A stretch of DNA of 46,959 nt, from the UHGV virus genome UHGV-1362024; one strand, 5' to 3'. The notes under the pieces were generated by a model. The model had not been told where the DNA came from. It did not search any database and saw only the letters and a list, made by a program, of their open reading frames with translations. The stretch's first letter is position 1. Every line of letters starts with the position of its first letter. The stretch comes from a virus. Position numbers and translations under genes: made by a program. Below are positions 11,099 through 39,017 of this stretch, piece by piece.

Positions 11099-11130
11099 AC
11101 TGACGTAGATTGAAAGCATAAGGTGATTAA
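11099..11130 (+). promoter_or_regulatory. Plus-strand promoter of the TGACGTAGATTGA family (copy 1)
   Basis: cTGACGTAGATTGAaagcataagGTGATTaag, immediately upstream of the 11142 ORF. Confidence 0.45.
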
Positions 11131-11141
11131 GGGTTTGACAT

Positions 11142-11276
11142 ATGAACGAGACTGATGCTGATTTGAGATTTTACATTGACCTGTACGTTGATTGCGGGTT
11201 TACCTATGATGAGGCCGAGTTGATGGCGAAAAAATTACTTGCAATGGTAGGGGTGACATTCGATGAAAATAACTGA
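11142..11276 (+). CDS. Small hypothetical protein (44 aa)
   Basis: Unlisted short ORF (MNETDADLRFYIDLYVDCGF...); its stop overlaps the HNH start. Confidence 0.3.
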   Translation: MNETDADLRFYIDLYVDCGFTYDEAELMAKKLLAMVGVTFDENN

Positions 11277-11748
11277 TTGGTCAGATATTTTTTATTATTG
11301 TGATGGGGCTATTTACTGGAAGATAAGAACCTCAAACAGAGTGAAAATCGGAAGCGAGGTGAAGGCGGTAGGAGGCAATGGATATAAGATTGTTGGAATC
11401 TATGGCGTCAAGTATCTTGTTCATCGCATCATCTGGGAAATGCATAATGGGAAAATTCCTGACGGAATGCAGATTGATCATATAGACCACAATAAAACAA
11501 ATGATAAGATAGATAACCTCAGGCTTGTCACTCCAAAAGAGAATAATCACAACATGAAGTTCAGGGTGACAAACAAATCAGGTGTTACTGGTGTTTCATG
11601 GGATAAACAACATAAAAAATGGGCCTCAAACATAAAAGTTGATGGCGTAAAGATTCATCTTGGATTGTTTTCTGACTTAAATATGGCCGCTGAAGCAAGG
11701 AGAAAGGCGGAGGTTAAGTATGATTTTCATGAGAACCATGGTAAATGA
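11263..11748 (+). CDS. HNH homing endonuclease with AP2-type DNA-binding domain (paralog 1 of 3)
   Basis: HRIIWEMHNGKIPDGMQIDHIDHNKTNDKIDNLRLV and a C-terminal AP2-like segment (TGVSWDKQHKKWASNIKVDGVKIHLGLF). Paralogous to 25798-26319 and 36515-37000. Confidence 0.85.
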   Translation: MKITDWSDIFYYCDGAIYWKIRTSNRVKIGSEVKAVGGNGYKIVGIYGVKYLVHRIIWEMHNGKIPDGMQIDHIDHNKTNDKIDNLRLVTPKENNHNMKFRVTNKSGVTGVSWDKQHKKWASNIKVDGVKIHLGLFSDLNMAAEARRKAEVKYDFHENHGK

Positions 11749-11996
11749 TGATGGATAACGAAAATCGCTATGCCTGCGAGCAATACCTTGATGCACTGGT
11801 GACGCTGGAACTATCTGCAAAGTTCGCCATGCTCGAGCGCCGCCCGGTAAATGGCAGCATTAAGGCGTGCTGGCAGGCTATCAGGCCGCGAGTGACCAAT
11901 TACCTCAACCGGAAGATTTTCGACGGCGTGAGTCGCCAGGCAATGCCACGCGGTGCGCTATGCATGTTGCGCCGTCAGCTTGATGAGTGTGTATGA
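11745..11996 (+). CDS. Hypothetical protein
   Basis: 83-aa ORF coupled to the HNH gene by an ATGA overlap. Confidence 0.4.
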   Translation: MMMDNENRYACEQYLDALVTLELSAKFAMLERRPVNGSIKACWQAIRPRVTNYLNRKIFDGVSRQAMPRGALCMLRRQLDECV

Positions 11997-12014
11997 TGTT
12001 GCGGGAGAAAACCA

Positions 12015-12167
12015 ATGGTGGTTGACCAAACAGATGCTGATGTCATATCCGCCTATGCCGGACAGTGCATTGACATTAATTACGCGATTGCCATTCGCTT
12101 AAAGCGATCTGAGTTTATGGCTAATCTGATTTTGTGGGCGATTAAAAATAAGACGAGGAAGGCGTGA
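12015..12167 (+). CDS. Small hypothetical protein (50 aa)
   Basis: Unlisted ORF MVVDQTDADVISAYAGQCIDINYA... Confidence 0.25.
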   Translation: MVVDQTDADVISAYAGQCIDINYAIAIRLKRSEFMANLILWAIKNKTRKA

Positions 12168-12169
12168 TA

Positions 12170-12364
12170 ATGAGAGCCATTCATAAAATAAAAAAAGAAA
12201 GCCATGTGAACGAAATGATTGAATATTACGGCTGGATTTATGTCCATAAATTTAAATCTTCGCATGGTAACATGCGGAGGATAGCAAGAAGAATGGAGCG
12301 AGATGGCAAATTAAAGATGATATCTCAAGATAAGTTGTTTTTTAGATATGTCAGAACAGAATAA
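12170..12364 (+). CDS. Hypothetical protein (64 aa; listed with GTG start at 12164)
   Basis: RBS GAGGAAGG before ATG 12170; followed by a terminator. Confidence 0.4.
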   Translation: MRAIHKIKKESHVNEMIEYYGWIYVHKFKSSHGNMRRIARRMERDGKLKMISQDKLFFRYVRTE

Positions 12365-12390
12365 ACCCCCTTTCGGGGGTTTTTTTATTA
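12363..12390. terminator. Bidirectional rho-independent terminator (AAACCCCCTTTCGGGGGTTTTTTT)
   Basis: Perfect hairpin flanked by an A-run and a T-run between converging genes. Confidence 0.75.
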
Positions 12391-13140
12391 CGTAACGGTA
12401 ACAATACACTTGGTGGAGTCAACGTAATCAGGACTGGTTGCCGAATCCATCACGCGGCAGAAGTACGTGCCAGCATCACCTGCGGCAGCAGTGGTCTTGG
12501 TGAACGTGTTGGTAGTAGCACTGCTGATCGGCGAAGTGCCTTTATACCATTGGTAGGTATAAGGCTCGACACCGCCAGCCGCAACTACCGGACCGAGCGT
12601 CAGAGTGCTGCCAGTAGCAACGGTTTTGGCTTCACTGATATCAGTAGTCAGCGTCAAATCTTCGATGCTTGACACGTCAACTGTAGAGCCATCATATGGC
12701 TTGAATTCAACTGAGCCGGTGATAATGTCGTTGGTGCCGCCATCGTAGCTCAGAGCGGTAATGTTGCAGTAGGCAACAACAACGGTATTACCGGTGGTCT
12801 GACGCACCCACAGCGAAGGCTGACGACGAGCTTTTACTTCGGTGACAAAGTATTTGATGAGGTTATGTACGCCATACTCATCAGCCTTATCAGCCTTGCG
12901 AACCTCAAAATCACCAGAAATGGTGAGGTCTGCGGTAGTGACCAGCGTCGCAACAAAGCCATCGCCATCATCAGCCTCTGAGGTAGTGGTGCTTGGGCTG
13001 AAGTCGACGCCTTTTGAGGTCATTGGAGCAAAAAACTTCCAATCTTCCTCTGCTGGTACAGCATCCCAGCAGCCATCAGCCAGCTCGATGAGCGACTGGC
13101 GACCTGTGATGATGCCGTTATCATTTGCACAAATAGCCAT
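12388..13140 (-). CDS. Major tail protein with C-terminal Ig-like (Big_2-like) domain
   Basis: 250-aa ORF with strong RBS AGAGAGGA. C-terminus YQWYKGTSPISSATTNTFTK...GTYFCRV is Ig-like, as in lambda gpV-type tail tube proteins. Confidence 0.7.
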   Translation of the reverse strand: MAICANDNGIITGRQSLIELADGCWDAVPAEEDWKFFAPMTSKGVDFSPSTTTSEADDGDGFVATLVTTADLTISGDFEVRKADKADEYGVHNLIKYFVTEVKARRQPSLWVRQTTGNTVVVAYCNITALSYDGGTNDIITGSVEFKPYDGSTVDVSSIEDLTLTTDISEAKTVATGSTLTLGPVVAAGGVEPYTYQWYKGTSPISSATTNTFTKTTAAAGDAGTYFCRVMDSATSPDYVDSTKCIVTVT

Positions 13141-13174
13141 GTTTAGAATCCTCTCTGTTTAGCTAAACAATCGC

Positions 13175-13183
13175 ATTATATCA
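13175..13183 (-). promoter_or_regulatory. Extended -10 promoter (TGATATAAT on minus strand) for the major tail gene
   Basis: The minus strand reads gtcaacaTGATATAATgcg 35 nt upstream of the ATG. Confidence 0.5.
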
Positions 13184-13185
13184 TG

Positions 13186-13214
13186 TTGACAGGTTTTGAT
13201 TGGTGGTGTAGATT
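13186..13214 (+). promoter_or_regulatory. Sigma70-type promoter TTGACA-17-TAGATT driving the structured-RNA/tRNA unit
   Basis: TTGACAggttttgattggtggtgTAGATT, back-to-back with the minus-strand extended -10 element. Confidence 0.5.
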
Positions 13215-13285
13215 TAACTTGCTGGTCGCAGAATGCAGGAAGATTGACAGGTGGCATTCGGATTTACTGTTAATTTGAGACGCCA

Positions 13286-13900
13286 GCAACTATCAGGTAA
13301 GAGCGCTGTTAAGTAGCTTCAGGGGACATCCCCGCACAGGTGACGACTTATGCGCAAAAGTAGATGTGGTAAGGCTTAAAGCGCTCTTTCCGATAGTTTT
13401 CGTGGCGACTTTGCGGGTTTTTAGAAACTGACCACAAAGATAAATGCAAACGAAGAAATGTATCTGGCAGTAGCCTAACGGCTAAACACCAGCAAGGCCT
13501 TCCGACTCCTTGTCAATGAATTCGGCGCACTGGCCCGGTGTGATTAATAATGGGCACACAACAGGTAAGAGCATTGGGTTAGCGCAGCAGAGCAACCGTT
13601 AAAGTAGAGTCATAATCGAAAAGACGATTCTGTTTGGTCGATGCAATGAGTGCTCTTTCCGTTGTGGTGAATGCGCAGGCTGATGCGATGGTTTAGGGTG
13701 GGCGGTTTCCCATGCCTTTCCGGACTCGAGCGGAAAAACCGATTCACTAAGGGTAGGCAACGCCAGAGAACAGCACCGGCCACCACAACAAGACCAGACG
13801 ATATATGAGTGTCTTAAAAAACAGATGGGAGCCGGTGGAATCCCGGCACACAACAGGTAAATCAATTTACCACCTTTGAGTTGTACGATTCATGTGGTTA
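13286..13900 (+). repeat. Array of three diverged 270-285 bp direct-repeat units, each starting near ACAGGTAA(G)AGC and containing a roughly 95-nt imperfect palindrome (AAGAGC...GCTCTT); candidate structured ncRNAs
   Basis: Unit anchors at 13293, 13562 and 13846. Long-range inverted repeats are AAGAGCGCTGTTAAG...CTTAAAGCGCTCTT and AAGAGCATTG...CAATGAGTGCTCTT. The AAGTAGA motif recurs. No credible ORF is present. Confidence 0.3.
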
Positions 13901-13919
13901 AGTGAGTTGGTTTATCGTT

Positions 13920-14047
13920 GTGGTGAAGCTCAACGGCGAGCTAGGGAATAGTTTTGCGGTGAAGATTCCGGATAAGTAACCGCAGGATGCGCGTAACCCA
14001 ATCAGCAGCGCACTGATGGAAGGTGGTTCGACTCCACTCACCACAAC
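13920..14047 (+). ncRNA. tRNA-like element (about 126 nt): perfect 7-bp acceptor stem TGTGGTG/CACCACA, D-arm GCTC/GAGC, T-arm GGTGG-TTCGACT-CCACT, with an oversized central region
   Basis: Hand-folded; no canonical anticodon arm identified. Possibly a degenerate tRNA or stable RNA. Confidence 0.25.
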
Positions 14048-14052
14048 ACAAC

Positions 14053-14129
14053 GCACCATTAGCTCATCAGGATAGAGCAATTGCCTTCTAAGCAATCGGT
14101 AACTGGTTCGAATCCAGTATGGTGCACCA
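14053..14129 (+). tRNA. tRNA-Arg (anticodon TCT), CCA encoded
   Basis: Manual cloverleaf. Acceptor GCACCAT/ATGGTGC (7 WC pairs), D-stem GCTC/GAGC, anticodon stem ATTGC/GCAAT with loop CTTCTAA, T-arm ACTGG-TTCGAAT-CCAGT, discriminator A. Confidence 0.8.
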
Positions 14130-14132
14130 AAT

Positions 14133-14209
14133 TCCCGTTTAGCTTAACTGGTTAAAGCACCCGACTCATAATCGGATGATTACAGGTTCGAATCCTGTCG
14201 CGGGAACCA
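14133..14209 (+). tRNA. tRNA-Met (anticodon CAT), CCA encoded; two stem mismatches
   Basis: Acceptor TCCCGTT/CGCGGGA (one GU, one mismatch), D-stem GCTT/AAGC, anticodon loop CTCATAA, T-arm ACAGG-TTCGAAT-CCTGT. Confidence 0.55.
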
Positions 14210-15009: not shown

Positions 15010-15354
15010 TTACCCCGTTACCAGCGCAAAATCAGGTAGGTCATTGCGGTCTAGCGTATTGCCGTAATTCACGATGCTTCTAATCTGGTCAGCTCCGGCG
15101 GCCAGCGGGTCAGCACTGGTAATGGTGCCAAGCATGATGAAGTCGCCAACAGACGCATCCTGGTATTCCGTCCAGAATGTGTTTTTCTGTGCAATCTCAT
15201 TGCCAGCTGTGCCGGTGGTTAGGTTCTTATCGAAGCCATAATCACACATGATGGACTCTGGCGCGGCGAATGTTGGCTTGCCATATTTATCCTTGCCAGT
15301 AAGCCGCCAGATTGTGCATGGCTGCGTATAGCTCCATCTTGCTATTGCTGACAT
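15010..15354 (-). CDS. Putative head-tail connector protein
   Basis: 114-aa ORF in the neck block. Confidence 0.3.
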   Translation of the reverse strand: MSAIARWSYTQPCTIWRLTGKDKYGKPTFAAPESIMCDYGFDKNLTTGTAGNEIAQKNTFWTEYQDASVGDFIMLGTITSADPLAAGADQIRSIVNYGNTLDRNDLPDFALVTG

Positions 15355-15472
15355 GGTGCGGCCTCAAGAGTATAAACCCAGCGCGGAACAGGAAGGCGCA
15401 GCAACACCAGAATAACCAGCAACGGCATGCACCATTTACGGATTGCGATATTTACAGTTAATATTGACGTTT

Positions 15473-15865
15473 TCATCTACAGTTACTCCCGGCGACAACC
15501 CGAAACCACGGCTTTGCTGCCCCATCAGGCTCTTCTACAAGGTCGCCTGTGCAGTCTGCCGTATCGAGTAGCTTCATCTGATTGTAAAGGGCCATCCACG
15601 GCTTACTGCCATAGCCAAATGACTGCGACGCACCAGATGGCGCCCGGTGGCTGGTTATGTATCTTCCGGCTGTATTTGAGGCGATAAGGATTGAGGCCCA
15701 TAGCAGAATTGCATCCTGCCTACATGTGTCTTCAGGGTAATTAAGCTCAAGACACTCTGTGATGCTCGCCACCAGACACAGGATTCCCGTTGCGTCTGCT
15801 GTGGTGATAGTCACGCCTCTTGACGCCATGGCGGCGACAAGTTCACTTGCTGTCGGTGCTGCCAT
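15473..15865 (-). CDS. Putative head-tail adaptor; the listed ORF extends to 15934 but overlaps the upstream gene, so the internal Met (MAAPTASELV) is likely
   Basis: 153-aa listed ORF; an internal start removes a 90-nt overlap. Confidence 0.3.
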   Translation of the reverse strand: MAAPTASELVAAMASRGVTITTADATGILCLVASITECLELNYPEDTCRQDAILLWASILIASNTAGRYITSHRAPSGASQSFGYGSKPWMALYNQMKLLDTADCTGDLVEEPDGAAKPWFRVVAGSNCR

Positions 15866-16130
15866 TCTTTTTGCTCTCCCGAATCTTCCACCACATCTCA
15901 AAAAGGTTTTTTGCCACCAGTGACAGCGCGCCAAGTATAGAGGCTACCGCTGCCCACTCGGTAATCGAATGGGGGATCATTGAGGCAATGTATGATTGTG
16001 CGACCGGCGTCTGCTCTGCCACCTTCAGGCCAAGACCCGTGCCGATGGAGGTATAACCGGCTTTGTCGATTACCTGGCCGACAGTGCCACTAATTATCTG
16101 GTTTGCGGCGTGCTGAAGCGCGTCTCTCAT
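15843..16130 (-). CDS. Small membrane-anchored protein (C-terminal TM helix), first gene of the neck operon
   Basis: 95 aa with WAAVASILGALSLVAKNLF followed by a charged tail; RBS GGAG. Confidence 0.4.
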   Translation of the reverse strand: MRDALQHAANQIISGTVGQVIDKAGYTSIGTGLGLKVAEQTPVAQSYIASMIPHSITEWAAVASILGALSLVAKNLFEMWWKIRESKKNGSTDSK

Positions 16131-16275
16131 TAATTATTCTCCGAATGATGAACTTCCAGCATCTATACACCTGAACCAGCGAAAGCGCCATGACGATAAC
16201 GCCGATTGCTATATCCAATTTCGCCGCCTTACGTTTTTCAGGACGGAACAGCGCGGGTTGAGTGTTGTTGGTTTA

Positions 16276-16320
16276 ATTTTATCATAAAGTGTTGACGTAG
16301 ATTGAGGGTGTCGCTATAGT
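16276..16320. promoter_or_regulatory. Bidirectional promoter module: minus-strand extended -10 (TGATAAAAT) back-to-back with plus-strand TTGACGTAGATTGA-N10-TATAGT (copy 2)
   Basis: ATTTTATCAtaaagtgTTGACGtagattgagggtgtcgcTATAGTgatgacgtagaaac. TTGACG-17-TATAGT is a near-consensus sigma70 promoter, and a second GACGTAGA copy sits at about +1. Confidence 0.6.
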
Positions 16321-16360
16321 GATGACGTAGAAACAACAATAAATGTTAGAGGTGATGAAG

Positions 16361-16660
16361 ATGAATGAATTAAAAGGTACGCCGGGGTCGTGGGAAGTCG
16401 AAGATAACGGTTATTTTTATGACATTAACGCGGTGCGCGGAACTGTTGGGAATGTTTGCTCATCCGCAAGTTGGTTTGATAATGATGAGCATCGCGGTCC
16501 GGTGGCAATGGCAAATGCGCAACTCATCGCTGCCGCGCCGGAGTTGCTGGAAGCATTGCAAAATATGGTTGAAGCATATCAGTATGAGGCGTCAATTGAT
16601 AACCCAGCATTGCTGTCAGCGCGTGCCGCAATCGCGAAAGCACTCGGAGAATCCAAATGA
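16361..16660 (+). CDS. Hypothetical protein (listed from 16343; ATG 16361 has a better-spaced RBS GAGGTG)
   Basis: First gene of the plus-strand operon. Confidence 0.45.
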   Translation: MNELKGTPGSWEVEDNGYFYDINAVRGTVGNVCSSASWFDNDEHRGPVAMANAQLIAAAPELLEALQNMVEAYQYEASIDNPALLSARAAIAKALGESK

Positions 16661-16773
16661 TCCACCACGAAATACGAAAAGAAGACCTGAAGGCGTGGGA
16701 TAAGTTCAAAATCAAGCTGGCGTTAATCGTTATCGGATTCGCCATTGCCAGTGCAATCTGTTTATCAAAGTGA
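16657..16773 (+). CDS. Small membrane peptide (38 aa)
   Basis: Unlisted ORF MIHHEIRKEDLKAWDKFKIKLALIVIGFAIASAICLSK; ATGA-coupled to the upstream gene. Confidence 0.3.
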   Translation: MIHHEIRKEDLKAWDKFKIKLALIVIGFAIASAICLSK

Positions 16774-16780
16774 GGGGAAG

Positions 16781-17596
16781 ATGACATCTCTCGGAAAAAT
16801 TTACTCAGACAAAGAAACTCGCGGCGGAATCGTGGTCAACAAAGGTTATCAGGTCCCTGTCGACCAGCTTTACCTTGAGCCGGGGTACAACATCCGCGAA
16901 GCCGATGAGCAGCACGTTGAATACTTCGCGCAGTGTTGGGAATCAGGACAGCCAATCCCGGCGTTAACTGTTATTCCTGATTCCGACGGAAAGCGCATCA
17001 AGATTCTTGACGGCCAGCATCGTTACCTTGGAGCACTGCGTGCCATTGAGCGCGGCGTGCCAATTGCGCGAATTGAGTGCAAAGACTTCACCGGCGATGA
17101 GGCGGATAAAATCGCCTTCATGGTGTCTTCAAGTCAGGGCAAGCAACTCGACCCGCTTGAGCGTGCAAAGGCTTATGTGCGCCTCAAAGGGTTCGGGTGG
17201 ACGAATGAAGAAATCGCCAAGAAGGTCGGGCGCTCTGTGTCTGATGTGCAAATGCACCTGTCACTTGGTGATGTACCTGATGCCATCAAGCAGCGTATCA
17301 ATGCAGGCCAAATCAGCTATGCCAACGCCGTTGCGGTCGCACGTGAGCATGGCGATGATGCCGTTAACGTTATTGATGCCGCCGTTGAGGAAGCGAAAGC
17401 GCAGGGCAAAGATAAGGTGACGGCTAAAACGCTCAAGGCCAAAAAAGTTAAGCCGATTGACCGCCTGATTCAGTTGCTGAAAGAAGCAGACCATATGGTT
17501 GTCGCTGAGGGTCATGTTGCGCAGGAGACAGAAGAATTTTTGCGCCTTCCTTCCGCTGAGTTGAGTGAAGTTCTGGCTATTCTGGAGAAGCTGTGA
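16781..17596 (+). CDS. ParB-like nuclease domain protein (ParB/Srx N-terminal domain)
   Basis: KILDGQHRYLGA motif (DGxHR box). Listed from 16745, but ATG 16781 has RBS GAGGGG. Confidence 0.75.
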   Translation: MTSLGKIYSDKETRGGIVVNKGYQVPVDQLYLEPGYNIREADEQHVEYFAQCWESGQPIPALTVIPDSDGKRIKILDGQHRYLGALRAIERGVPIARIECKDFTGDEADKIAFMVSSSQGKQLDPLERAKAYVRLKGFGWTNEEIAKKVGRSVSDVQMHLSLGDVPDAIKQRINAGQISYANAVAVAREHGDDAVNVIDAAVEEAKAQGKDKVTAKTLKAKKVKPIDRLIQLLKEADHMVVAEGHVAQETEEFLRLPSAELSEVLAILEKL

Positions 17597-18525
17597 TGAC
17601 AGCCAGCTACTACAACGAATGGGACGCAAGTGCAGCGGCGTGGCTGCGAGAGTTAATTAACAATAAACTAATTCCTTACGGATATGTCGATGAACGATCA
17701 ATCACCGAAGTCACCCCTTCAGACCTGGAAGGATTTACACAGTGTCACTTCTTTGCCGGAATCGGAGGGTGGCCCCTTGCACTCCAGTTGGCTGGAATAC
17801 CAGCAAGCACTCAGCTCTGGACAGGATCACCACCTTGCCAGCCGTTTAGCGTTGCCGGTAAGTCTCTCGGATTTGACGACGAGCGGCACCTTGCCCCAGC
17901 ATTTCTCAGGCTCATCAGAGAGTGCAAGCCTCAATTGCTGTTTGGAGAGCAGGTTGCGGCAGCAATTGGAAAGCACTGGCTCGATTTTGTATTCCTTAAC
18001 CTGGAAGACAAAGGCTACGCCTGCGGGTCGGCAGTATTGCCAGCGTGCAGCGTCGGTGCACCACACAAACGCGACAGACTTTTCTTCGGCGCGATGCAAC
18101 TGGGCGACACCAATAGTGAACGACACAACTGGCAGCACGCATTGCTACAGCGGGAAGGACAGAAAGATATGCCTGAAGCTACCTGGACAGGCGAAGCTGG
18201 CCGCATTGCCCAGCCCAACTGCGAACAGCAACGACAGGGCTGCTGCACCAGAAAACGCACTAACTATGTATCGGAAGGACGGGAGCAAGATACAACAGCG
18301 TCTGCAGGATTTTGCAGCGATAACGCAACCAATCCGCATCACGGATTCTGGTCAGATGCTGACTGGCTCGGATGCAGGGATGGACAGTTCCGGCCAGTTG
18401 AACCCGGCACATTCCCGCTGGCTAATGGGATTCCCGCCAGGGTGGGACGACTGCGCGGTTATGGCAATGCCATCGTCCCGCAAGTCGCAGCGGAATTCAT
18501 TAAAGCATTCATGAGGTCAGTTTAA
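17593..18525 (+). CDS. DNA (cytosine-5)-methyltransferase
   Basis: Motif I FAGIGG, motif IV PCQPFS (catalytic Cys), motif VI-like FGEQV, motif VIII-like PHKRDRLFF, motif X GNAIVPQV. ATGA-coupled to ParB. Confidence 0.85.
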   Translation: MMTASYYNEWDASAAAWLRELINNKLIPYGYVDERSITEVTPSDLEGFTQCHFFAGIGGWPLALQLAGIPASTQLWTGSPPCQPFSVAGKSLGFDDERHLAPAFLRLIRECKPQLLFGEQVAAAIGKHWLDFVFLNLEDKGYACGSAVLPACSVGAPHKRDRLFFGAMQLGDTNSERHNWQHALLQREGQKDMPEATWTGEAGRIAQPNCEQQRQGCCTRKRTNYVSEGREQDTTASAGFCSDNATNPHHGFWSDADWLGCRDGQFRPVEPGTFPLANGIPARVGRLRGYGNAIVPQVAAEFIKAFMRSV

Positions 18526-24137: not shown

Positions 24138-24409
24138 TTGTTAATATTCTCCTCTAAAGCTCTAATAACAGCGCGGGTCAGGAGACCCTCACCATTCATG
24201 GCTACGTGCGCTTTTATCTCGCTAAGCGCTGCCTTTAAAACGCCAACACTTACCGTAACAACTCGCTTATTATCTTCATTTATTTTCTTCAATCTCTCTA
24301 TTGCTGTTAGCTCTTCCACTATCCACCCCATCTCTCTACGATTATTGGCCGTGCGTTCACATTTGGTGACAAACAGCACGTTTCCTGATTTATGCTTTAC
24401 CGCCCACAT
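24134..24409 (-). CDS. Hypothetical protein (91 aa)
   Basis: Listed ORF in a coupled array of small genes. Confidence 0.4.
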   Translation of the reverse strand: MWAVKHKSGNVLFVTKCERTANNRREMGWIVEELTAIERLKKINEDNKRVVTVSVGVLKAALSEIKAHVAMNGEGLLTRAVIRALEENINK

Positions 24410-24921
24410 GACTGGCGCGCCCCGGCAAGCAGCTTTTCAAACATCATCCTGTCACGGCTCATGCCAAACGGAATAACCTCCTGCCAGTAATATTTCCATG
24501 CTCCGCCGGGAAGCATTTCACGGTCAACCTGACCAATGCTTGCCAGGTAGCGCATGCGTGCCTTGAGGATGGTGTAATTGACGCCTACAGCCTCTGCTAT
24601 CTGCTTGCTCTTGCGTCCCGGATTCGCCTCAAGATACGTCTGAATTGCCAAATCAAGCGCGGTATTATCGGGATTGAGGAAATACTTAAAGCAGCGCCTG
24701 CCATGGCTGACGCTTTCCTCCTTAATAATAAATCCCATGCTCTCCAGCTCAATCAGATAACCTGTAACGCTGGCTCGGTTTGTCATGCCAGTCTGCTTGC
24801 GTATCATGGCATTGGTTGCGCCGCCGCAGCGCTCTATCACCGTTAGTATTTGCGTTTTAAAGTCCATTTGCGCGCTCCAGTGCATCCTGTTTGTAGTCGC
24901 TAACTGTATATAGGAAGCCAT
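24397..24921 (-). CDS. Hypothetical protein (174 aa), possible winged-helix DNA-binding protein
   Basis: Listed ORF; no confident motif. Confidence 0.35.
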   Translation of the reverse strand: MASYIQLATTNRMHWSAQMDFKTQILTVIERCGGATNAMIRKQTGMTNRASVTGYLIELESMGFIIKEESVSHGRRCFKYFLNPDNTALDLAIQTYLEANPGRKSKQIAEAVGVNYTILKARMRYLASIGQVDREMLPGGAWKYYWQEVIPFGMSRDRMMFEKLLAGARQSCGR

Positions 24922-26319: not shown

Positions 26320-26359
26320 ATCACTCGCATTAAGATGTTATAATCTACAACACCTAGTA

Positions 26360-26385
26360 TTGACTAATTGACGTAGATTAGTCAA
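26360..26385. promoter_or_regulatory. Palindromic operator / divergent promoter region: TTGACTAAT-TGACGTAG-ATTAGTCAA (copy 3 of the TGACGTAGATT module)
   Basis: 9-bp inverted repeat flanking the conserved TGACGTAG core, between divergent operons. A TTATAAT box sits about 20 nt upstream, at 26338. Confidence 0.5.
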
Positions 26386-26408: not shown

Positions 26409-26609
26409 ATGGCGAGACAACGCAAAGAACCACTGGAAGTACTGACTGATATTATCGCTAAGCGCCAGCCGTTAAGCCTGCGAGATGTCAGATATTACGC
26501 GCACTGCTATGTAGCAATGCGCGAATGGAGTGCTGAAGAAATGTATGCGTTTGTGCGCGAACACTTCAGCGTGGATGAGAAAAACAAAGTTACGTTGAGG
26601 GTGGAGTGA
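26409..26609 (+). CDS. Hypothetical protein (66 aa)
   Basis: First gene of the plus-strand operon. Confidence 0.4.
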   Translation: MARQRKEPLEVLTDIIAKRQPLSLRDVRYYAHCYVAMREWSAEEMYAFVREHFSVDEKNKVTLRVE

Positions 26610-27079
26610 TGAAATACAAATACCTGAAAGGAAGTGCTGATTATTTTAATGGTCATGAAGATGCCGTTCTTGCTGTGAAGTCAGCAACCAGTGGCAAAAT
26701 CCACTACCTCAGCGCGGATTATGCAGGGCGAGATAAGGATATCGAAAAGGCTGGCGATATTGTTATCGCCCATCGTGAGCCAGTAACTGATGATGACTTG
26801 AATTGGCGCGCCATCTCAACAGAAGCCCTCATCACCGAGCGCGGCAACCGTTATGGCAAATTCAAAGACGGCGCAGAAATCATGCAGTCACTGAAAGACA
26901 CCATGCGAGACGTTGACGGCTGGAACAACCTGACGGCGAGCCAGAAGGAAGCGCTCGACATGATTCAGCATAAAATCGGTAGAATCCTGAATGGCGACCC
27001 GACATACGACGATAGCTGGAAGGACATTGCTGGCTATGCAACATTAATTGTTAATGAACTGAATGGGGAGGTAAAGTGA
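26606..27079 (+). CDS. Hypothetical protein (157 aa)
   Basis: ATGA-coupled. C-terminal helical segment ERGNRYGKFKDGAEIMQSLKD...LTASQKEALDMIQHKIGRIL. No confident family. Confidence 0.4.
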   Translation: MMKYKYLKGSADYFNGHEDAVLAVKSATSGKIHYLSADYAGRDKDIEKAGDIVIAHREPVTDDDLNWRAISTEALITERGNRYGKFKDGAEIMQSLKDTMRDVDGWNNLTASQKEALDMIQHKIGRILNGDPTYDDSWKDIAGYATLIVNELNGEVK

Positions 27080-27303
27080 TGGCACAATGCAAAAGCACTG
27101 AAGCACAAGAGTCTGGGCACTTTGAGTGCAATGGGTTTGCCGCACGATTAAAAGGCAAGCACCTGACCATTGAAGTGACTGGCGACAAAGTCAATGCTGC
27201 ATATGATTGCAGCCTGTTTACTCACGATGAGGTTGGGGTGATTATCAAGTGCATCCAGCACATCAACAAAAGTGTCAGCAAAGCGTCAATGGTGAAGTTA
27301 TGA
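27076..27303 (+). CDS. Hypothetical protein (75 aa)
   Basis: Coupled ORF. Confidence 0.4.
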   Translation: MMAQCKSTEAQESGHFECNGFAARLKGKHLTIEVTGDKVNAAYDCSLFTHDEVGVIIKCIQHINKSVSKASMVKL

Positions 27304-27428
27304 ATCGAGAGCCGGTAGCCTACATCATTACCAGCAATCGTGGCCGCCGCTATCTGGCGTTTGCTGGTAGTGTTGAGCACCAAAATGCAGCCATGTTTGG
27401 CTATGAGATGAAACCACTATACGAATGA
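27300..27428 (+). CDS. Small hypothetical protein (42 aa)
   Basis: Unlisted ORF MNREPVAYIITSNRGRRYLAFAGS..., ATGA-coupled. Confidence 0.3.
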   Translation: MNREPVAYIITSNRGRRYLAFAGSVEHQNAAMFGYEMKPLYE

Positions 27429-27437
27429 GGTGTAAAA

Positions 27438-27692
27438 ATGTCTTTAAGCTTTGGTGAGGCCTTAGAGGAGATGGGGATTGGATGCAAGGTCGCAAGAAAC
27501 GGGTGGAATGGAAAGGGTATGTTCCTGTTCATGATAGCAGGAGGGGCATGGGACTTTGAGTGCGACATTGATGGGGTTGATGGGCTTAATACGCTACCTT
27601 TTATCTGCATGAAAACGGCTGATGGGAAACTGGTTCCATGGCTGGCAAGCCAAACCGATATGATTGCAAGTGACTGGATGGTTATTGGTTGA
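27438..27692 (+). CDS. DUF2829-family protein (Tad2-like; candidate anti-Thoeris / signalling-nucleotide sponge)
   Basis: 84 aa. FGEALEEMGIGCKVARNGWNGKGMF and KTADGKLVPWLASQTDMIASDWMVIG match my recollection of the DUF2829 consensus (GWNGKGM...PWLASQTDM..DW). RBS GAGG; last gene before a terminator. Confidence 0.55.
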   Translation: MSLSFGEALEEMGIGCKVARNGWNGKGMFLFMIAGGAWDFECDIDGVDGLNTLPFICMKTADGKLVPWLASQTDMIASDWMVIG

Positions 27693-29006: not shown

Positions 29007-29030
29007 TTGTTACCTCCGGTGATGCAGATT

Positions 29031-29076
29031 ATTTTATCACAATAGTCTTGACGTAGATTGAATCGTAAGCGATGAT
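29031..29076. promoter_or_regulatory. Bidirectional promoter module (copy 4): minus-strand TGATAAAAT extended -10 for the lysis genes, back-to-back with plus-strand TTGACGTAGATTGA-N10-GATGAT
   Basis: ATTTTATCAcaatagtcTTGACGtagattgaatcgtaagcGATGATgtagttacac; 27 of 31 positions are identical to copy 2 across ATTTTATCA...TTGACGTAGATTGA. Confidence 0.55.
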
Positions 29077-29104
29077 GTAGTTACACAAACAAAGGGGATT
29101 CAAG

Positions 29105-29395
29105 ATGAAAAAATTAATCGCAGCAGCAGTATTCGCAATGGCTTCATTTGGTGCGTCGGCTGGCGAGTTTTGCAATGCAGTTGGTGAGTTCGGTGAAGCG
29201 GCGGCAGAAGCCCGTGATGCTGGCGTATCAAAGCAGATCGCGCTGATGGTTTCTTCTGGAGGCCAGTATAGCGCTGAATTTAACCAACTCAGCAAGGCCA
29301 TCGTTGATGGGGCATACAAAATGACAGACAAGACACCGAAAGAAGTGGCCGCAATCTCTCGCGAGGTCTGCCTGTCAACGATGGGTGACAAATGA
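29105..29395 (+). CDS. Small secreted protein (96 aa, cleavable signal peptide)
   Basis: MKKLIAAAVFAMASFGASA signal, then a soluble helical domain. First gene of a plus-strand cassette. Confidence 0.5.
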   Translation: MKKLIAAAVFAMASFGASAGEFCNAVGEFGEAAAEARDAGVSKQIALMVSSGGQYSAEFNQLSKAIVDGAYKMTDKTPKEVAAISREVCLSTMGDK

Positions 29396-29526
29396 TGTGC
29401 CCTCGCCTGATGTTTAAGGCCCGCAATCGCTACGTTAAATTAGTGATGCGCGGCATGGATGAGCATGCGGCGTGGTCTGTCGTGATGGGCGAACTGAAAA
29501 GCATTTATAACGGAGAGAGGAAATGA
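29392..29526 (+). CDS. Small hypothetical protein (44 aa)
   Basis: Unlisted ORF MMCPRLMFKARNRYVKLVMRGMDEHAAWSVVMGELK..., ATGA-coupled on both sides. Confidence 0.3.
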   Translation: MMCPRLMFKARNRYVKLVMRGMDEHAAWSVVMGELKSIYNGERK

Positions 29527-30410
29527 AGCTGATTGATATTTTGGTTGAAGAAACCATTGAAAACGGCTGGTCATGGCCGGAGCATGCCAATTGCATCACG
29601 CAGGACCGCGACAGAGAAATCATGCCGGCAAAATGCCAGCCAAGCGTTGCTAAATTTGAGGCTAGTTTTAATCGGTGGTTTCTTGATGGTTCTAGAATTG
29701 ATTGTTTCACCGCTGATGTTTTGGCAAGTGACTACGCCATCGCCATCATCACCCGCGAACAGTACGAAGCCGCACTGGCTGCCAAAAATGACGGCTGGAT
29801 TGAGTGGGGTGGTGGTGAGTACCCTCCTGTTAGCACAAATGCAGTTGTTGATGTGAAGTTGCGATGTGGTTCCATAACAGCTAGACAACCAGCAGGAGCC
29901 ATGAATTGGCAGGTAAATGCGCCGGGTGACCCTGGTGACATCATCGCCTACCGCCTGCACCAGCCGCAGGAGGCAGACCGGGTTCGCGCTGCCGCATGGA
30001 ATGCTTATGCTGGCATCACCGAAGCGGATGAAGAAGCCAACCTGAATGAGTGCATAGGTCAGGATGCTGCGCCGGTTTGGAATGGCGAATGCTTGCCGCC
30101 GGTTGGATGTGAGTGTGAGTTTATGAAACACACGCTTGATGCTATACCCAACTGGCGTCGAGGCATCATTAAATATGTCAGCGAATATACAGTGGTGATT
30201 GTTGAGGCGCTATCTCCGGGAGAATTTGTCGCCCATCCTCGCACCTGCGATTTTCGCCCCGTTCCCTCAGAAGCGGAGCGGAAGCGCGATGAGGCAAAGA
30301 TCGCGATTGCTGAGTTGTGCAGGTCATCTGCCAGCAATGGGCATTCAGCAGATTTGATTTTTGACGCCATCGCAGCCGGTAAAATTCCCGGCGTTAAGCT
30401 GGAGGATTGA
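29523..30410 (+). CDS. Hypothetical protein (295 aa), Cys/Trp-rich, no recognised family
   Basis: RBS GAGAGGA; part of the plus-strand cassette. Confidence 0.45.
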   Translation: MKLIDILVEETIENGWSWPEHANCITQDRDREIMPAKCQPSVAKFEASFNRWFLDGSRIDCFTADVLASDYAIAIITREQYEAALAAKNDGWIEWGGGEYPPVSTNAVVDVKLRCGSITARQPAGAMNWQVNAPGDPGDIIAYRLHQPQEADRVRAAAWNAYAGITEADEEANLNECIGQDAAPVWNGECLPPVGCECEFMKHTLDAIPNWRRGIIKYVSEYTVVIVEALSPGEFVAHPRTCDFRPVPSEAERKRDEAKIAIAELCRSSASNGHSADLIFDAIAAGKIPGVKLED

Positions 30411-30532
30411 TGATTATCATCTGCGTGGCCTGCAAGCACGAACACCACAACCGAGACAGGATTGAAAAGCCAGGAATTCGATATACGATGTGCCCAAAGT
30501 GCGGTTGCGGAGGGTTCATTAAAAAGCGTTAA
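30410..30532 (+). CDS. Zinc-ribbon mini-protein (40 aa, CxxC...CxxC)
   Basis: Unlisted ORF MIIICVACKHEHHNRDRIEKPGIRYTMCPKCGCGGFIKKR, overlapping the upstream stop (TGATG). Confidence 0.35.
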   Translation: MIIICVACKHEHHNRDRIEKPGIRYTMCPKCGCGGFIKKR

Positions 30533-33995: not shown

Positions 33996-34028
33996 GATGC
34001 CCCGGTGATGTAGTTATGTCAATGCGCC

Positions 34029-34057
34029 TTGACGTAGATTCTAGCATGGCGTAGATT
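34029..34057 (+). promoter_or_regulatory. Plus-strand promoter (copy 5): TTGACGTAGATT-N11-TAGATT, with a second GCGTAGATT copy forming the -10
   Basis: TTGACGtagattctagcatggcgTAGATTaaaatg, 27 nt upstream of the ATG at 34084. Confidence 0.5.
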
Positions 34058-34083: not shown

Positions 34084-34374
34084 ATGAAATGTGTCATTTT
34101 CGAGCTTGATGGCGTGCTGCGCGATGCGGAAGGAAATGCTATTGCTGGCAACGTTGTGCTGGCTAAGTCACTCTACTCTGCCGGGCATGATGTGCTTATC
34201 ATGAGAGCAAAGCATGCGTATGCGTGGCTGCATGCTAACGATGTTTTCTATGATGACATCATGGCTTCGCACCAGCAGATTGACGCTGACAGAGTGGCCA
34301 TGGCGGTCGTGTCTGATGATGTTATTTATGCGGCCATGCGCAATGCAGGGATTCATTGCTGGCTTTACAAATAG
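34084..34374 (+). CDS. HAD-superfamily-like mini protein (96 aa)
   Basis: N-terminal CVIFELDGVL resembles HAD motif I (DxDG), but with Glu in place of the first Asp. Single-gene plus-strand cassette with its own promoter and terminator. Confidence 0.4.
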   Translation: MKCVIFELDGVLRDAEGNAIAGNVVLAKSLYSAGHDVLIMRAKHAYAWLHANDVFYDDIMASHQQIDADRVAMAVVSDDVIYAAMRNAGIHCWLYK

Positions 34375-36441: not shown

Positions 36442-36461
36442 ACATGGCGTAGATAAAAAAG

Positions 36462-36514: not shown

Positions 36515-37000
36515 TTATACACCATGATTATCGTGAAACCCATACTCTTCTTCTGCTTTCTTTCTTGCCAGCTCCGCATCAAGTATGTCGTTGAAATATC
36601 CAAGATGTATGAACTTCTTGTTAACCCTTATTTTTGCTTGCCACTTTCGCTTATCCTTCCTCCAGTGTACCCCAGTTACTCCACTACTATTGCTAGAGTA
36701 CTTAGATTTGTTTTTTAGATTCCCTCCCCTATTTGTCAGCCTGAGATTTTCAATCCTGTTATCACCAGGGTTATGGTTTATATGGTCAATCTCCAATCCG
36801 CCAGTTATAGGGCCATTATGCATTTCCCATATGATTCTGTGCGCAAAGTATTTTCGTCCAGAGCACCAAATAGATGTATATCCTTTTGACCCTGAGTGGC
36901 CTGCAACCTTACCTTTTCTTGCCTTGCGGCCATCATCCTCGCGCCATATCAGGTTTCCGTTGTTGTATTCAAACAGCTCATTCCAGTCTATTCTTTTCAT
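36515..37000 (-). CDS. HNH homing endonuclease with AP2 domain (paralog 3 of 3); listed from 37066, but MKRIDW at 37000 matches the N-termini of the paralogs
   Basis: AHRIIWEMHNGPITGGLEIDHINHNPGDNRIENLRLT; AP2-like TGVHWRKDKRKWQAKIRVNKKFIHLGYF. Confidence 0.85.
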   Translation of the reverse strand: MKRIDWNELFEYNNGNLIWREDDGRKARKGKVAGHSGSKGYTSIWCSGRKYFAHRIIWEMHNGPITGGLEIDHINHNPGDNRIENLRLTNRGGNLKNKSKYSSNSSGVTGVHWRKDKRKWQAKIRVNKKFIHLGYFNDILDAELARKKAEEEYGFHDNHGV

Positions 37001-37157
37001 CACACTTACCGCTCCTGCACCACAAATCATTGCGTGGGGATTTAACATGAACCACCTCAATCGCATCAGGAAAGGCTTTGGCGATTGCTGCTATGAAGCG
37101 GTCGACGCCTTCTAGCCGAGCCTTCTGCCACACCTCCTGCTTTGATTTTTGCGGCAT
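36978..37157 (-). CDS. Small hypothetical protein (59 aa)
   Basis: Unlisted ORF MPQKSKQEVWQKARLEGVDRFIAAIAKAF...; TAATG-coupled. Confidence 0.25.
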   Translation of the reverse strand: MPQKSKQEVWQKARLEGVDRFIAAIAKAFPDAIEVVHVKSPRNDLWCRSGKCDEKNRLE

Positions 37158-37315: not shown

Positions 37316-37318
37316 AAA

Positions 37319-37411
37319 TCACCTCACAATAAACCAGATGGCTAACGCAACAGCAATCCAGAATGCCAACAGTGATAAGGCAATCAGTCTGCGGATGATG
37401 TAGGGTTTCAC
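37319..37411 (-). CDS. Small membrane peptide (30 aa, GTG start)
   Basis: Unlisted ORF VKPYIIRRLIALSLLAFWIAVALAIWFIVR with RBS GGAGGT; GTGA-coupled to the upstream gene. Confidence 0.25.
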   Translation of the reverse strand: MKPYIIRRLIALSLLAFWIAVALAIWFIVR

Positions 37412-38349
37412 GACTTACCTCCGTTGAGCATGGCGGCGCGGCAGGCGTCATAAGATTCTCGCATCGCGTCTTTTACCCAGCCAAGTGGCTTATTACCGCT
37501 AAGTTCCAGCCATTCATCGAACGTTGGCACTACCGGTGCTGACTGGAACGGCTTCCTACCCTTCACCCAGGTAACCAGCGCCTGAATATGCTTTTCACAT
37601 GTTGCCGCCAGCATCTCATCTGATTCAGGCGCTGCTATACCGGCGTTACTGAGGGCCAAACGCAGACCATTCGGCACTACCGGAGCTGGCTGTGCGTGGC
37701 GATAGAGCTTCGTCCCGTATGGCATTTGCTGAATGCCGACAAGCGGTCTAATCTCTCGCTCCCCAAAATCTTCGGGGTCACCATAAATTGAAACCACTTC
37801 TGCCACCGGCTCCCCGTCCCTTGCGGACAGCGCCAGTTCAGCAAGCTGCAGGTCAGCCAATATTTCTTCGCGCGCGCTTTCGAATGCTGTCTGTCGTGAT
37901 GCCATTTTCAGAGCTTTGGCGATGCTGTGGTTTGCCTTGCTCATTTGGCCCCCCCCCTCGCGCAGCTGCTTGGCGAACTTAAGCGCCTCTTCGGTCGCGC
38001 CATTCCAGCGGCCGCCCCTACTGGAAACCCACTCCTCCACCCCATCAGCCTTAATACCGGCTACGATGCGATCGGTGGCGGGGGTCGTTTCTTGCGGAGA
38101 TACAGCAATACGAATGGTTTCTAGTGCCGGGTCAGTTTCAACTGTTGGCACCTTGATATAACCTAACTGCACCCCGTTCATGATGAACATGCGGCGATCA
38201 TCGCTCGTCGCCTTCAGCGCTATATTCTCCACAGCCAGCTGAACGCACAGCTTTGCAACCTTGAGGTATTTTTCCTCTTTGATTGAGAGTTCACCACCGC
38301 CCTCAAGGTTTTTAATAATTTCATGAACTTCGTTAATTTCGATATCCAT
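37408..38349 (-). CDS. Hypothetical protein (313 aa)
   Basis: Listed ORF; no recognised motif. Confidence 0.45.
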   Translation of the reverse strand: MDIEINEVHEIIKNLEGGGELSIKEEKYLKVAKLCVQLAVENIALKATSDDRRMFIMNGVQLGYIKVPTVETDPALETIRIAVSPQETTPATDRIVAGIKADGVEEWVSSRGGRWNGATEEALKFAKQLREGGGQMSKANHSIAKALKMASRQTAFESAREEILADLQLAELALSARDGEPVAEVVSIYGDPEDFGEREIRPLVGIQQMPYGTKLYRHAQPAPVVPNGLRLALSNAGIAAPESDEMLAATCEKHIQALVTWVKGRKPFQSAPVVPTFDEWLELSGNKPLGWVKDAMRESYDACRAAMLNGGKS

Positions 38350-38355
38350 AAATCC

Positions 38356-38634
38356 TCACTTAACCGCCTGTAAACGCTCAAGCTCACGCATCAGTGCAGA
38401 TACACGGCGTTGCCGCAAAGTCTCTGCATGCTCTTTTGCCTGTTGCTCATCAAGCCAGTATTCACCACGTTTAAAGTAAACATCGCCAACCACAGCAACC
38501 TGCCCATCAGCAAATAGCTGTGCGCTTTCGTACTTCTGAATGCCACGGGTCAGCGCGTACTTCGTGACCCATATAGTCTCAGCGCTTGCCGCGTTAGCGA
38601 TAACCAGTAAAGCCACTGCCAGTAATTTATTCAT
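38356..38634 (-). CDS. Small secreted protein (92 aa, signal peptide MNKLLAVALLVIANAASA)
   Basis: Listed ORF; predicted periplasmic. Confidence 0.45.
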   Translation of the reverse strand: MNKLLAVALLVIANAASAETIWVTKYALTRGIQKYESAQLFADGQVAVVGDVYFKRGEYWLDEQQAKEHAETLRQRRVSALMRELERLQAVK

Positions 38635-38649
38635 TGTTGCTAAACCGGT

Positions 38650-38835
38650 TTAGTTTCCACCAGATGACACGATAACCTGCTCAAGCACTCTATGCTTACC
38701 TTCACCACTAAAAACTCGACAGACGCGCTTACCGTTGCTGTATGCATGCATTGCCTGCGCCATCATAAAGTTTTGCGCCTTAACTGCGCCCATTTCAGGC
38801 TCCAGTTGAGTGCGCGTGTAGATTGCTTTGGTCAT
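38650..38835 (-). CDS. Small hypothetical protein (61 aa)
   Basis: Listed ORF. Confidence 0.35.
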   Translation of the reverse strand: MTKAIYTRTQLEPEMGAVKAQNFMMAQAMHAYSNGKRVCRVFSGEGKHRVLEQVIVSSGGN

Positions 38836-38847
38836 TTTATCCCTCCA

Positions 38848-38964
38848 TCAAAAACCAAAGTCGCCAGTAAACTGAGCAAGCTCTTCGCCATGCTCATCCA
38901 CCACATAGCCATCGAATACAACACCACCATTTTCGTCTTGCTGTTTTTTATCTTCCATCTTCAT
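38848..38964 (-). CDS. Small acidic hypothetical protein (38 aa)
   Basis: Unlisted ORF MKMEDKKQQDENGGVVFDGYVVDEHGEELAQFTGDFGF with RBS AGAGGTGA; first gene after promoter copy 7. Confidence 0.25.
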   Translation of the reverse strand: MKMEDKKQQDENGGVVFDGYVVDEHGEELAQFTGDFGF

Positions 38965-38988
38965 CACCTCTTTGTTGTTGGTGTGGTA

Positions 38989-39017
38989 ACTATACGATGG
39001 CGCTCAATCTACGTCAA
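38989..39017 (-). promoter_or_regulatory. Minus-strand promoter (copy 7): TTGACGTAGATTGA-N10-TATAGT
   Basis: The reverse complement reads TTGACGtagattgagcgccatcgTATAGT; TTGACG-17-TATAGT is a near-consensus sigma70 promoter. Confidence 0.6.

Follow-up and report, generated by a model that had tools for sequence, protein, structure and literature searches.

A conserved 11-bp motif at predicted promoters of the non-structural gene cassettes of a Klebsiella siphophage and its relatives

The virus genome UHGV-1362024 is a 46,959-bp stretch of DNA (hereafter the window, meaning the whole stretch analysed) that represents an essentially complete Klebsiella siphophage genome, and we examined a short motif, TGRYGTAGATT, that recurs ahead of its transcription units. 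The nearest relatives of this phage are KpV2811, BUCT541, VLCpiS13 and pIS4-A (Roufvirus and related phages), and its more remote kin, at ~75–80% nucleotide identity in the head genes, are the Skatevirus-like phages LPST10, seszw and Bas81 of Salmonella, E. coli and Shigella. The annotations of the relatives list neither an integrase nor an immunity repressor. Structural and lysis genes occupy the minus strand and are interrupted by short plus-strand accessory cassettes, many of which end in terminator-like hairpins. Several gene labels proposed in a first-pass annotation of the window were backed by Pfam: a T5orf172/MUG113 GIY-YIG-type nuclease (6346–7026), an HNH endonuclease (11263–11748, plus strand), a ParB/KorB-like helix-turn-helix (HTH) protein with HTH_ParB and KorB domains (16745–17596), a C5 methylase (17593–18525), a Tad2-like Thoeris anti-defence protein (27438–27692; PF11195, 86 bits) and a Cro/YdaS-like HTH protein (42200–42442). 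A search of the window against Rfam returned two tRNAs and nothing else above threshold.

The core TGACGTAGATT is present in six exact copies, at 11101, 16293, 26369, 29049 and 34030 on the plus strand and at 39006 on the minus strand (copies 1–6). These lie exactly where the first-pass annotation had placed them; shuffled sequence gives an expectation of 0.02, and no shuffle attained six. Full cores on the plus strand number five rather than the six that had been claimed, as the site at 36445 reads TGGCGTAGATA. The longer 14-mer TTGACGTAGATTGA is exact at 16292, 29048 and 39004–39017 (minus strand), with one mismatch at 11100 and two at 26368 and 34029. The hexamer CGTAGA, which had been considered the repeated half-site, occurs 23 times against 10.7 expected, an approximately twofold enrichment that includes 36448, an inverted pair at 6301/6326 and the second copies at 16326 and 34050. 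The true unit is the 11-mer TGRYGTAGATT. An unbiased k-mer count found the motif to be the most repeated 10-mer in the window genome and in KpV2811, Tbat1_6, VLCpiS13c, VLCpiS13d, LPST10 and Bas81 (7/7 family genomes examined). Roufvirus-like Klebsiella phages mainly carry TGACG in the 5′ half and Skatevirus-like phages mainly TGATG; the prevailing Skatevirus-like form is TGATGTAGATT, whose 10-mer occurs 10 times in LPST10. Allowing at most one mismatch, TGRYGTAGATT has 14 matches in the window against 2.5 expected, and this search adds sites at 13204, 34047 and 26342 (minus strand), as well as weaker ones at 29020 and 36445. We also built a position matrix from 70 family sites and scanned the window with a threshold of at least 9 bits. 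This gave 13 matches, compared with 2.7 ± 1.7 in shuffles, and 12 of the 13 were intergenic, intergenic sequence making up 6.6% of the window. Nearly all matches face the next gene, and their distances to its start cluster at 22–35 nt for proximal and 43–67 nt for distal copies; every strong copy is followed, 22–67 nt downstream, by the tRNA unit or by a start codon that has a Shine-Dalgarno sequence, 36445 being the exception.

Orthologous Roufvirus-like and Skatevirus-like sites were aligned without gaps, anchored on the motif. Between-genus identity was 0.93 within the 11-mer, compared with 0.46–0.49 in the 40–50 nt on either side, and variation within the motif was limited to the R and Y positions: depending on the phage, copy 3 reads TGACG, TGGCG or TGATG, and its divergent partner TGTTG, TGGTG or TGACG. 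The motif is conserved over ~25% nucleotide divergence. The last two positions of the 14-mer (+11 and +12) carry only 0.4–0.6 bit and are not conserved. The closest outgroups to share head-gene homologues are Yersinia phage P400 (53% protein identity) and Klebsiella phage Kp4862-1 (40%), and neither has the motif above chance. Because it is conserved between genera relative to its flanks and has no above-chance copy in either outgroup, the motif is a selected, family-specific signal. A scan of IMG/VR for the exact 14-mer found 119 stretches, of which 39 had at least two copies and are probably relatives, and 80 had one copy and are probably chance matches.

The individual copies differ in how the motif is placed relative to promoter-like hexamers. 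Copy 1 (11101–11111) reads CTGACG and so is not a −35 element; its TAGATT is the −10 hexamer of a TTGACA-18-TAGATT pair, with TTGACA at 11082–11087 and the first gene (ATG at 11142, followed by the HNH gene at 11263–11748) beginning 30 nt downstream. The tRNA unit had been described as the one exception among the cassettes, yet TGGTGTAGATT at 13204–13214 (plus strand) is the same family motif, forming the −10 region of TTGACA(13186)-17-TAGATT ahead of an open reading frame (ORF)-poor leader and the tRNA-Arg/tRNA-Met unit (14053–14209). In copy 2 (16292–16333, plus strand), TTGACG as −35 is fused to TAGATT, the −10 hexamer TATAGT follows at 16315–16320, and a second copy, TGACGTAGAAA, lies at 16323–16333, about +1. 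This promoter heads the cassette of ParB/KorB-like, C5-methylase and clamp-like genes (ATG at 16361), and the 5′ leader of the cassette (16321–16360) is nearly invariant between genera. A translation-initiation context, AGAGGTGATGAAGATG, recurs at cassette starts, for example at 16345–16363 and at 38956–38974 on the minus strand.

Between 26336 and 26379, elements on both strands form a divergent promoter knot. The plus-strand extended −10 element TGTTATAAT (26336–26344) overlaps the minus-strand motif TGTTGTAGATT (26342–26352), a copy that the first-pass list had missed, and which lies 28 nt 5′ of the ATG of a leftward unit of HNH, Lar-like and MarR-like genes. Inverted TTGACT hexamers and copy 3 (26369–26379, plus strand) complete the knot, and copy 3 heads the cassette at 26409–27692 that includes the Tad2-like gene. 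The divergent 26342(−)/26369(+) pair, 27 bp apart, is kept in 7/7 genomes. Copy 3 has no −10 hexamer at 17 bp; the GATGAT near it is only 12 bp away. The perfect 9-bp inverted repeat described around copy 3 is present in the window, while in relatives only TTGAC…GTCAA is kept.

The copy 4 array (29020–29083, plus strand) heads the 29105–30532 cassette and comprises a degenerate copy TGATGCAGATT (29020–29030), the core TTGACGTAGATT (29048–29059) with GATGAT (29071–29076) 17 bp downstream, and a third copy TGATGTAGTTA (29073–29083). The sequence context said to be common to copies 2 and 4 is present, with a difference of a 1-nt indel. The copy 5 array (34006–34057, plus strand) heads a gene at 34084–34374 and has TGATGTAGTTA again at 34006–34016, a core at 34030–34040 that gives the −35 hexamer and TGGCGTAGATT at 34047–34057 that gives the −10, with 17-bp spacing; back to back with it, the minus-strand extended −10 element TGCTAGAAT (34038–34046) overlaps the core. 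Degenerate direct copies near the core promoters, as first proposed, are real, and they are conserved in relatives. The weak copy TGGCGTAGATA (36445–36455, plus strand) has AGGACA 17 bp upstream and no credible plus-strand gene 3′ of it, the actual gene there being a minus-strand HNH gene (36515–37066), and its function is doubtful. Copy 6 (38989–39017, minus strand) consists of TTGACG (39017–39012), a 17-bp spacer and TATAGT (38994–38989), and heads a leftward unit of small genes (ATG at 38958). At the GIY-YIG cassette there is no motif above the matrix threshold; the cassette has the extended −10 promoter TGGTACAAT (6256–6264), and the CGTAGA pair in its leader that had been counted as a regulon site is under the matrix threshold and was taken as chance or a small hairpin.

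From these arrangements two registers emerge. Register A uses the motif as the −10 region, with TTGACA or TTGACG 17–18 bp 5′ of TAGATT and the gene start 22–44 nt downstream, as at 11101, 13204, 34047 and, weakly, 36445. This is the commonest arrangement in Skatevirus, where there are many TTGACR-17-(TGATG)TAGATT promoters. In register B the motif gives the −35 hexamer: TTGACG is directly followed by TAGATT and a −10 hexamer lies exactly 17 bp after TTGACG, as at 16293 and 39006 (both TATAGT), 29049 (GATGAT) and 34030 (the TAGATT of the next copy). We scored −10 hexamers by requiring A at position 2, T at position 6 and at least 4/6 matches, a rule that ~1.6% of random hexamers pass; four of the five TTGACG copies obey it at exactly 17 bp, which by a simple estimate is very unlikely by chance. 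The earlier claim of hexamers spaced at exactly 17 bp stands for 16292, 29048, 34029 and 39017; copies 1 and 3 do not show such a pair. A sigma-70 pair of −35 and −10 hexamers 16–18 bp apart is found at 11082–11111, 13186–13214, 16292–16320, 29048–29076, 34029–34057 and 39017–38989, and none at 26369, 26342 or 29020. Copies with neither promoter partner form a class C, made up of the 26342(−)/26369(+) pair and of 29020 and 34006, upstream of copies 4 and 5; relatives have class C copies too, in the KpV2811 pair 3143/3167 and the LPST10 10-bp tandem 3689/3699. Orthologous sites can switch register or hexamer between genera. Because the orthologous −10 of copy 6 interchanges between TATAGT in the window and TGATGTAGATT in Skatevirus, TAGATT appears really to be a −10-type hexamer; it occupies this position in several window copies and in most Skatevirus copies, and the element is not only a −35, as had been supposed.

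The most likely account of these geometries is that TGRYGTAGATT is a signature of promoters read by the host RNA polymerase with sigma-70, and would serve non-structural, presumably early, units. Sigma-70 requires T−12, A−11 and T−7 of the −10 hexamer and TTGAC of the −35. The 3′ half of the motif, TAGATT, would act as a −10 hexamer with the critical T−12, A−11 and T−7 intact, and the 5′ half, TGACG, would, where preceded by T, also provide a −35 hexamer TTGACG for a core 17 bp downstream. Under this scheme 11101, 13204 and 34047, and probably 26342 and 26369, would be −10 modules and 16293, 29049, 34030 and 39006 would be −35 modules, the two registers yielding single or tandem promoters. The motif marks nearly every predicted promoter of a non-structural cassette in this phage and in its Salmonella and E. 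coli relatives. We infer promoter activity and early timing of the motif-bearing units from these arrangements, and consider it quite likely that the copies are functional sigma-70 promoters. They resemble T4 early promoters, whose consensus extends beyond that of the host and in which many near-identical sigma-70 promoters with conserved bases beyond the hexamers head early genes, but differ from them in using one 11-mer in two registers, with a non-consensus −10 TAGATT and TG at −17/−16. The motif is not itself an extended −10 element: its TG lies three bases 5′ of TAGATT, at −17/−16, whereas the TG of extended −10 promoters lies at −15/−14. Readings based on sigma-54 or other alternative-sigma consensus sequences were rejected, as was a role at the RNA level, since in the −10 register the motif sits 5′ of the predicted start.

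It might be that nothing more than a promoter is present, the 11-mer being the family’s optimised sigma-70 consensus, with its extra bases reflecting polymerase effects (spacer or upstream −10 contacts, open-complex kinetics) or bidirectional overlap. Each strong copy does fit a −35 or −10 role with 17–18 bp spacing, the orthologous −10 hexamers of copy 6 interchange TAGATT and TATAGT, TAGATT overlaps an opposite-strand extended −10 at 26336–26352 and 34030–34046, and no indispensable DNA-binding protein co-varies with the motif. However, the bases dispensable for sigma-70 (TGRYG 5′ of the −10, the G and second T of TAGATT, and TAGATT after the −35) vary no more than the required ones, both among paralogues (~10 sites per genome) and between genera. 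TAGATT is two steps off the TATAAT optimum, and we know of no base-specific contacts of sigma-70 at −17/−16; the invariance of −17/−16 and of the non-optimal TAGATT bases across these paralogous sites and genera speaks against a promoter-only account. So does retention of the 11-mer in the −35 position, in which polymerase has no known use for TAGATT. TAGATT-like sequence follows TTGACG and not TTGACA, and because of this the 11-mer seems to act as a unit. Further points against a promoter-only account are the conserved degenerate copies without A−11 or T−7. Copies that break the −10 rules in this way include TAGAAA at 16328, invariant in 7 genomes, TGATGCAGATT at 29020, and the degenerate TGATGTTGATT conserved in three Skatevirus-like genomes (LPST10, Bas81 and seszw_280L); the 26342/26369 pair has no −35 partner at 17 bp in any genome. 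On balance we regard a promoter-only explanation as a possible but less probable one.

Because bases dispensable to sigma-70 do not vary and certain conserved copies suit neither register, we favour a second reader of the motif, probably a repressor. The same 11-mer would also bind a sequence-specific protein that would occlude the −10 or the −35 and act on the whole early regulon as repressor or modulator. Constant overlap with a core hexamer is to be expected of a repressor operator, and the 12 intergenic matches have the attributes of a multi-copy operator, namely an asymmetric site at many promoters conserved beyond the needs of polymerase. Known phage systems offer parallels in the 13-bp ‘stoperators’ of mycobacteriophage L5 gp71 and the 17-bp operators of P1 C1. 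Like these, the motif is a non-palindromic site within the range of 11–17 bp, of which there are ~10–30 genome copies, in short intergenic regions, in a fixed orientation to transcription and overlapping promoter hexamers. In the L5 site a TTGACA-like −35 is found on the complementary strand, and L5 sites additionally stop elongation at positions between genes. Unlike L5 and P1, which are temperate, with immunity and a known repressor, the copies here lie only at the 5′ ends of units.

A different explanation of the copies lacking a −35 is that the motif is a −35-independent element read by the host polymerase together with a phage specificity factor, in the manner of middle-class promoters, so that every copy would itself be a promoter. 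This single rule would cover all copies, distal ones included, and the −35-less copies at 26342, 26369, KpV2811 3167 and LPST10 3699 do head genes at the usual 22–30 nt. Nevertheless, many copies have a perfect TTGACA or TTGACG at 17–18 bp and would need no activator, the KpV2811-type motif heads replication genes that are needed before or with any phage factor, and the sole family-specific DNA-binding candidate is deletable. We therefore hold factor dependence to be improbable.

Among possible readers, the Cro/YdaS-like HTH protein (42200–42442) that the first-pass annotation had nominated is excluded as a family-wide regulator. It is specific to the replication module 39508–46789, which is common only to the window and VLCpiS13c, and is absent from five relatives that keep the motif. 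The ParB/KorB-like protein (16745–17596) was attractive at first, being 80–99% conserved and encoded behind the strongest promoter, and is disfavoured: VLCpiS13d (15231–16629) naturally lacks the ParB/methylase/clamp cassette and keeps every motif copy, including the copy 2 promoter, and the motif-less outgroup Kp4862-1 has a homologue at 48% identity. The leading candidate would be a family-specific ‘MarR-like’ tandem winged-helix protein of 156 aa (24397–24867, minus strand), served by the 26342 motif promoter. It is predicted to fold as two tandem winged-helix units (predicted local distance difference test score, pLDDT, 72.6), and a fold search with the model gave generic winged-helix matches only, none at an E-value of 0.001 or below. 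The protein is confined to the phage family (152 records), present in 7/7 natural motif-bearing genomes and absent from both motif-less outgroups, and, at only 37% identity, its homologues retain K-x-R-x-R in what is presumed to be the second recognition helix.

Several observations weigh against a promoter-plus-operator interpretation. In seszw_280L, a viable genome-reduced laboratory mutant, the MarR-like gene is deleted while the motifs and the ParB-like gene are kept (PMC9825161). Because of this deletion, the MarR-like protein, although the best candidate reader, would be at most a dispensable modulator. Its co-occurrence with the motif counts as one evolutionary event, both being clade traits, and VLCpiS13d makes the ParB-like candidate dispensable as well. 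The spacing of tandem copies is irregular (10, 17, 22, 24, 25, 27 and 29–30 bp) and ill-suited to cooperative binding, and at two sites the constraint on TAGATT could partly come from overlap with an opposite-strand extended −10 hexamer. Nor did the literature that we searched yield any promoter, start-site, RNA-seq or transcript work on the Roufvirus/Skatevirus-like family. Of the regulon first proposed, a promoter-associated intergenic set heading non-structural cassettes and conserved across genera stands, its nominated regulator does not, and an operator function can be put forward only conditionally. We infer that a motif-binding protein exists, and its identity, from the pattern of conservation, and judge the chances of the full promoter-plus-operator reading of TGRYGTAGATT to be evenly balanced.

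A host regulator was considered too. The sequence TTGAYGTAGATTGA resembles the FNR/CRP-family box TTGAT-N4-ATCAA, its left half matching 4–5/5 positions; phages of several enterobacterial hosts retain the motif, and two 14-mers (11100 and 13203) have their centres near −41 of divergent late promoters. The symmetric C of such boxes is essential for FNR/CRP binding, whereas the right half here, ATTGA, lacks it, and its last two bases are unconserved. No copy has a two-fold symmetric site of the type TTGAT-N4-ATCAA or TGTGA-N6-TCACA, the right half reading ATTGA, ATTAG or ATTCT, and the motif is asymmetric in every copy. Its position is −28.5 or −11.5 relative to its own promoter and about −30 to −41 relative to divergent ones. 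Literature queries with the motif sequence, in either orientation, yielded no account of it, just unrelated primers and one gonococcal FNR table, in which a near-identical 14-mer, TTGATGTAGATTAA, is listed as the FNR site of a gene (PMC1802743). An FNR/CRP-type site seems to us extremely unlikely.

Structural and lysis operons of the window are predicted to use another class of promoter, which is present ahead of almost all of them. TGnTAnAAT (TGNTANAAT) has 14 matches against 7.6 expected, and 12 of the 14 lie on the minus strand, which is the strand of the structural genes. Most of these extended −10 elements lie 24–35 nt 5′ of late-gene starts, and none has a usable −35. One of them, TGATAAAAT (29031–29039, minus strand), lies 24 nt 5′ of the endolysin ATG; others on the minus strand, at 2420, 4993, 6241, 10468, 11073, 13175, 16276, 23641, 32954 and 34038, stand ahead of tail, head, portal and lysis operons. 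Their targets include the tail fibre (2420), a gene at 6241, the DUF6246 and tape-measure operon (11073), the major tail gene (13175), prohead (23641), endolysin (29031), portal (32954) and the unit at 34038, and the layout is conserved in Skatevirus LPST10. Several are interlocked back to back with motif promoters: at 26336–26352 and 34030–34046 the extended −10 hexamer and an opposite-strand TAGATT share three bases, forming a bidirectional core. The motif did not behave as a MotA-box-type activator site of the divergent late promoters, a role that we rejected. The centre of the 14-mer is not fixed at about −30 but lies at about −40.5 (11073), −41.5 (13175), −29.5 (16276) and −30.5 (29031), and several late promoters have no motif at all.

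By these predictions the genome separates −35-dependent motif promoters for non-structural units from −35-independent promoters for structural ones. Such a layout, −35/−10 early and extended −10 late, is exploited by gp39 of phage P23-45 (PMC4124052). The likeness to Thermus P23-45 gp39 and T4 AsiA, with early-type units −35-dependent and structural operons served by extended −10 elements without a −35, is in promoter layout and not in the 11-mer, and, unlike in those phages, no gp39- or AsiA-like protein was identified here. The arrangement suggests a −35-independent late promoter class, perhaps with a switch of the anti-sigma-region-4 type. More speculatively, the 11-mer could be the operator of a family-wide early-to-late switch in a virulent siphophage, its asymmetric site bound by a phage protein, possibly the tandem winged-helix protein as a monomer, or alternatively a new kind of −35-independent promoter element. 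One bound sequence coinciding with the −35 or −10 of every early promoter would shut off the early regulon and would free polymerase for the interlocked extended −10 late promoters. We think these readings doubtful.

We also weighed whether the promoter is kept mainly as a homology patch for cassette swapping, as in T4-type promoter/stem-loop (PeSL) cassettes. Cassette contents vary among relatives while the promoter is kept, and in comparisons with four relatives homology breaks off near the motif more often than chance predicts (11/157 endpoints within 100 nt versus 4.9 expected, p about 0.013). Homology stops at 13214/13217, at or 3 nt past the end of the 13204 motif, in 4/4 relatives, and at 11113 in Tbat1_6. 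At these junctions the transcribed cargo downstream is replaced, which looks like cassette exchange at the promoter edge. As in PeSL cassettes, a conserved early promoter adjoins hypervariable, terminator-ended genes and some junctions lie within 3 nt of the motif edge; unlike in them, the promoter has no conserved stem-loop beside it, and breakpoints are only weakly enriched. Eleven bases are too short for efficient homologous recombination, most copies lie away from breakpoints, the enrichment is modest, and the strict orientation, gene distance and conservation over ~25% divergence speak for a role in transcription. Cassettes may plausibly be exchanged at the promoter edge as a by-product, but exchange as the primary explanation is very improbable. 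Downstream of the 13214 junction, the ORF-poor leader between the tRNA-unit promoter and tRNA-Arg/Met (13215–14052) has pieces that match 343 phage records from several unrelated groups, mostly unannotated under the match, with sub-threshold tmRNA-like matches only in Rfam, and may be an unannotated non-coding RNA or tRNA-derived element.

Two further features belong to the replication module. A ~440-bp ORF-free region (39040–39480) contains two G9 runs, T tracts and, in either orientation, 4–6 copies of TCTAAAGTCT / AGACTTTAGA. Apart from this region, the TAAAGTCT repeats are found in VLCpiS13c alone; they travel with the primase, Cro-like and Sak4 replication module and are probably origin iterons. 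Between the Cro/YdaS-like and Sak4-like genes, 42443–42555 carries a divergent promoter pair, TTTACA-17-TATCAT (minus strand) and TTGACC-17-TATCTT (plus strand), with no 11-mer, which looks like a separate, imported regulatory unit of this module.

Taken as a whole, the motif is most likely a previously undescribed example of a familiar type of phage control, in which a phage carries conserved promoters or operators of its own. Klebsiella, Salmonella and E. coli are commonly infected by Roufvirus- and Skatevirus-like siphophages, members of which are candidates for therapy, belong to the BASEL collection or served in a study of genome reduction. For these phages our analysis provides a map of two promoter sets conserved across genera: about a dozen predicted early promoters with a common 11-mer, and a similar number of predicted late promoters of the extended −10 type. 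The map may supply engineering handles, in that cassettes could be swapped behind a defined promoter and payload expression tuned. The family offers a simple system for asking how a small virulent phage orders its gene expression, and, if a binding protein exists, the motif would be a compact case of a single asymmetric operator overlapping either promoter hexamer.

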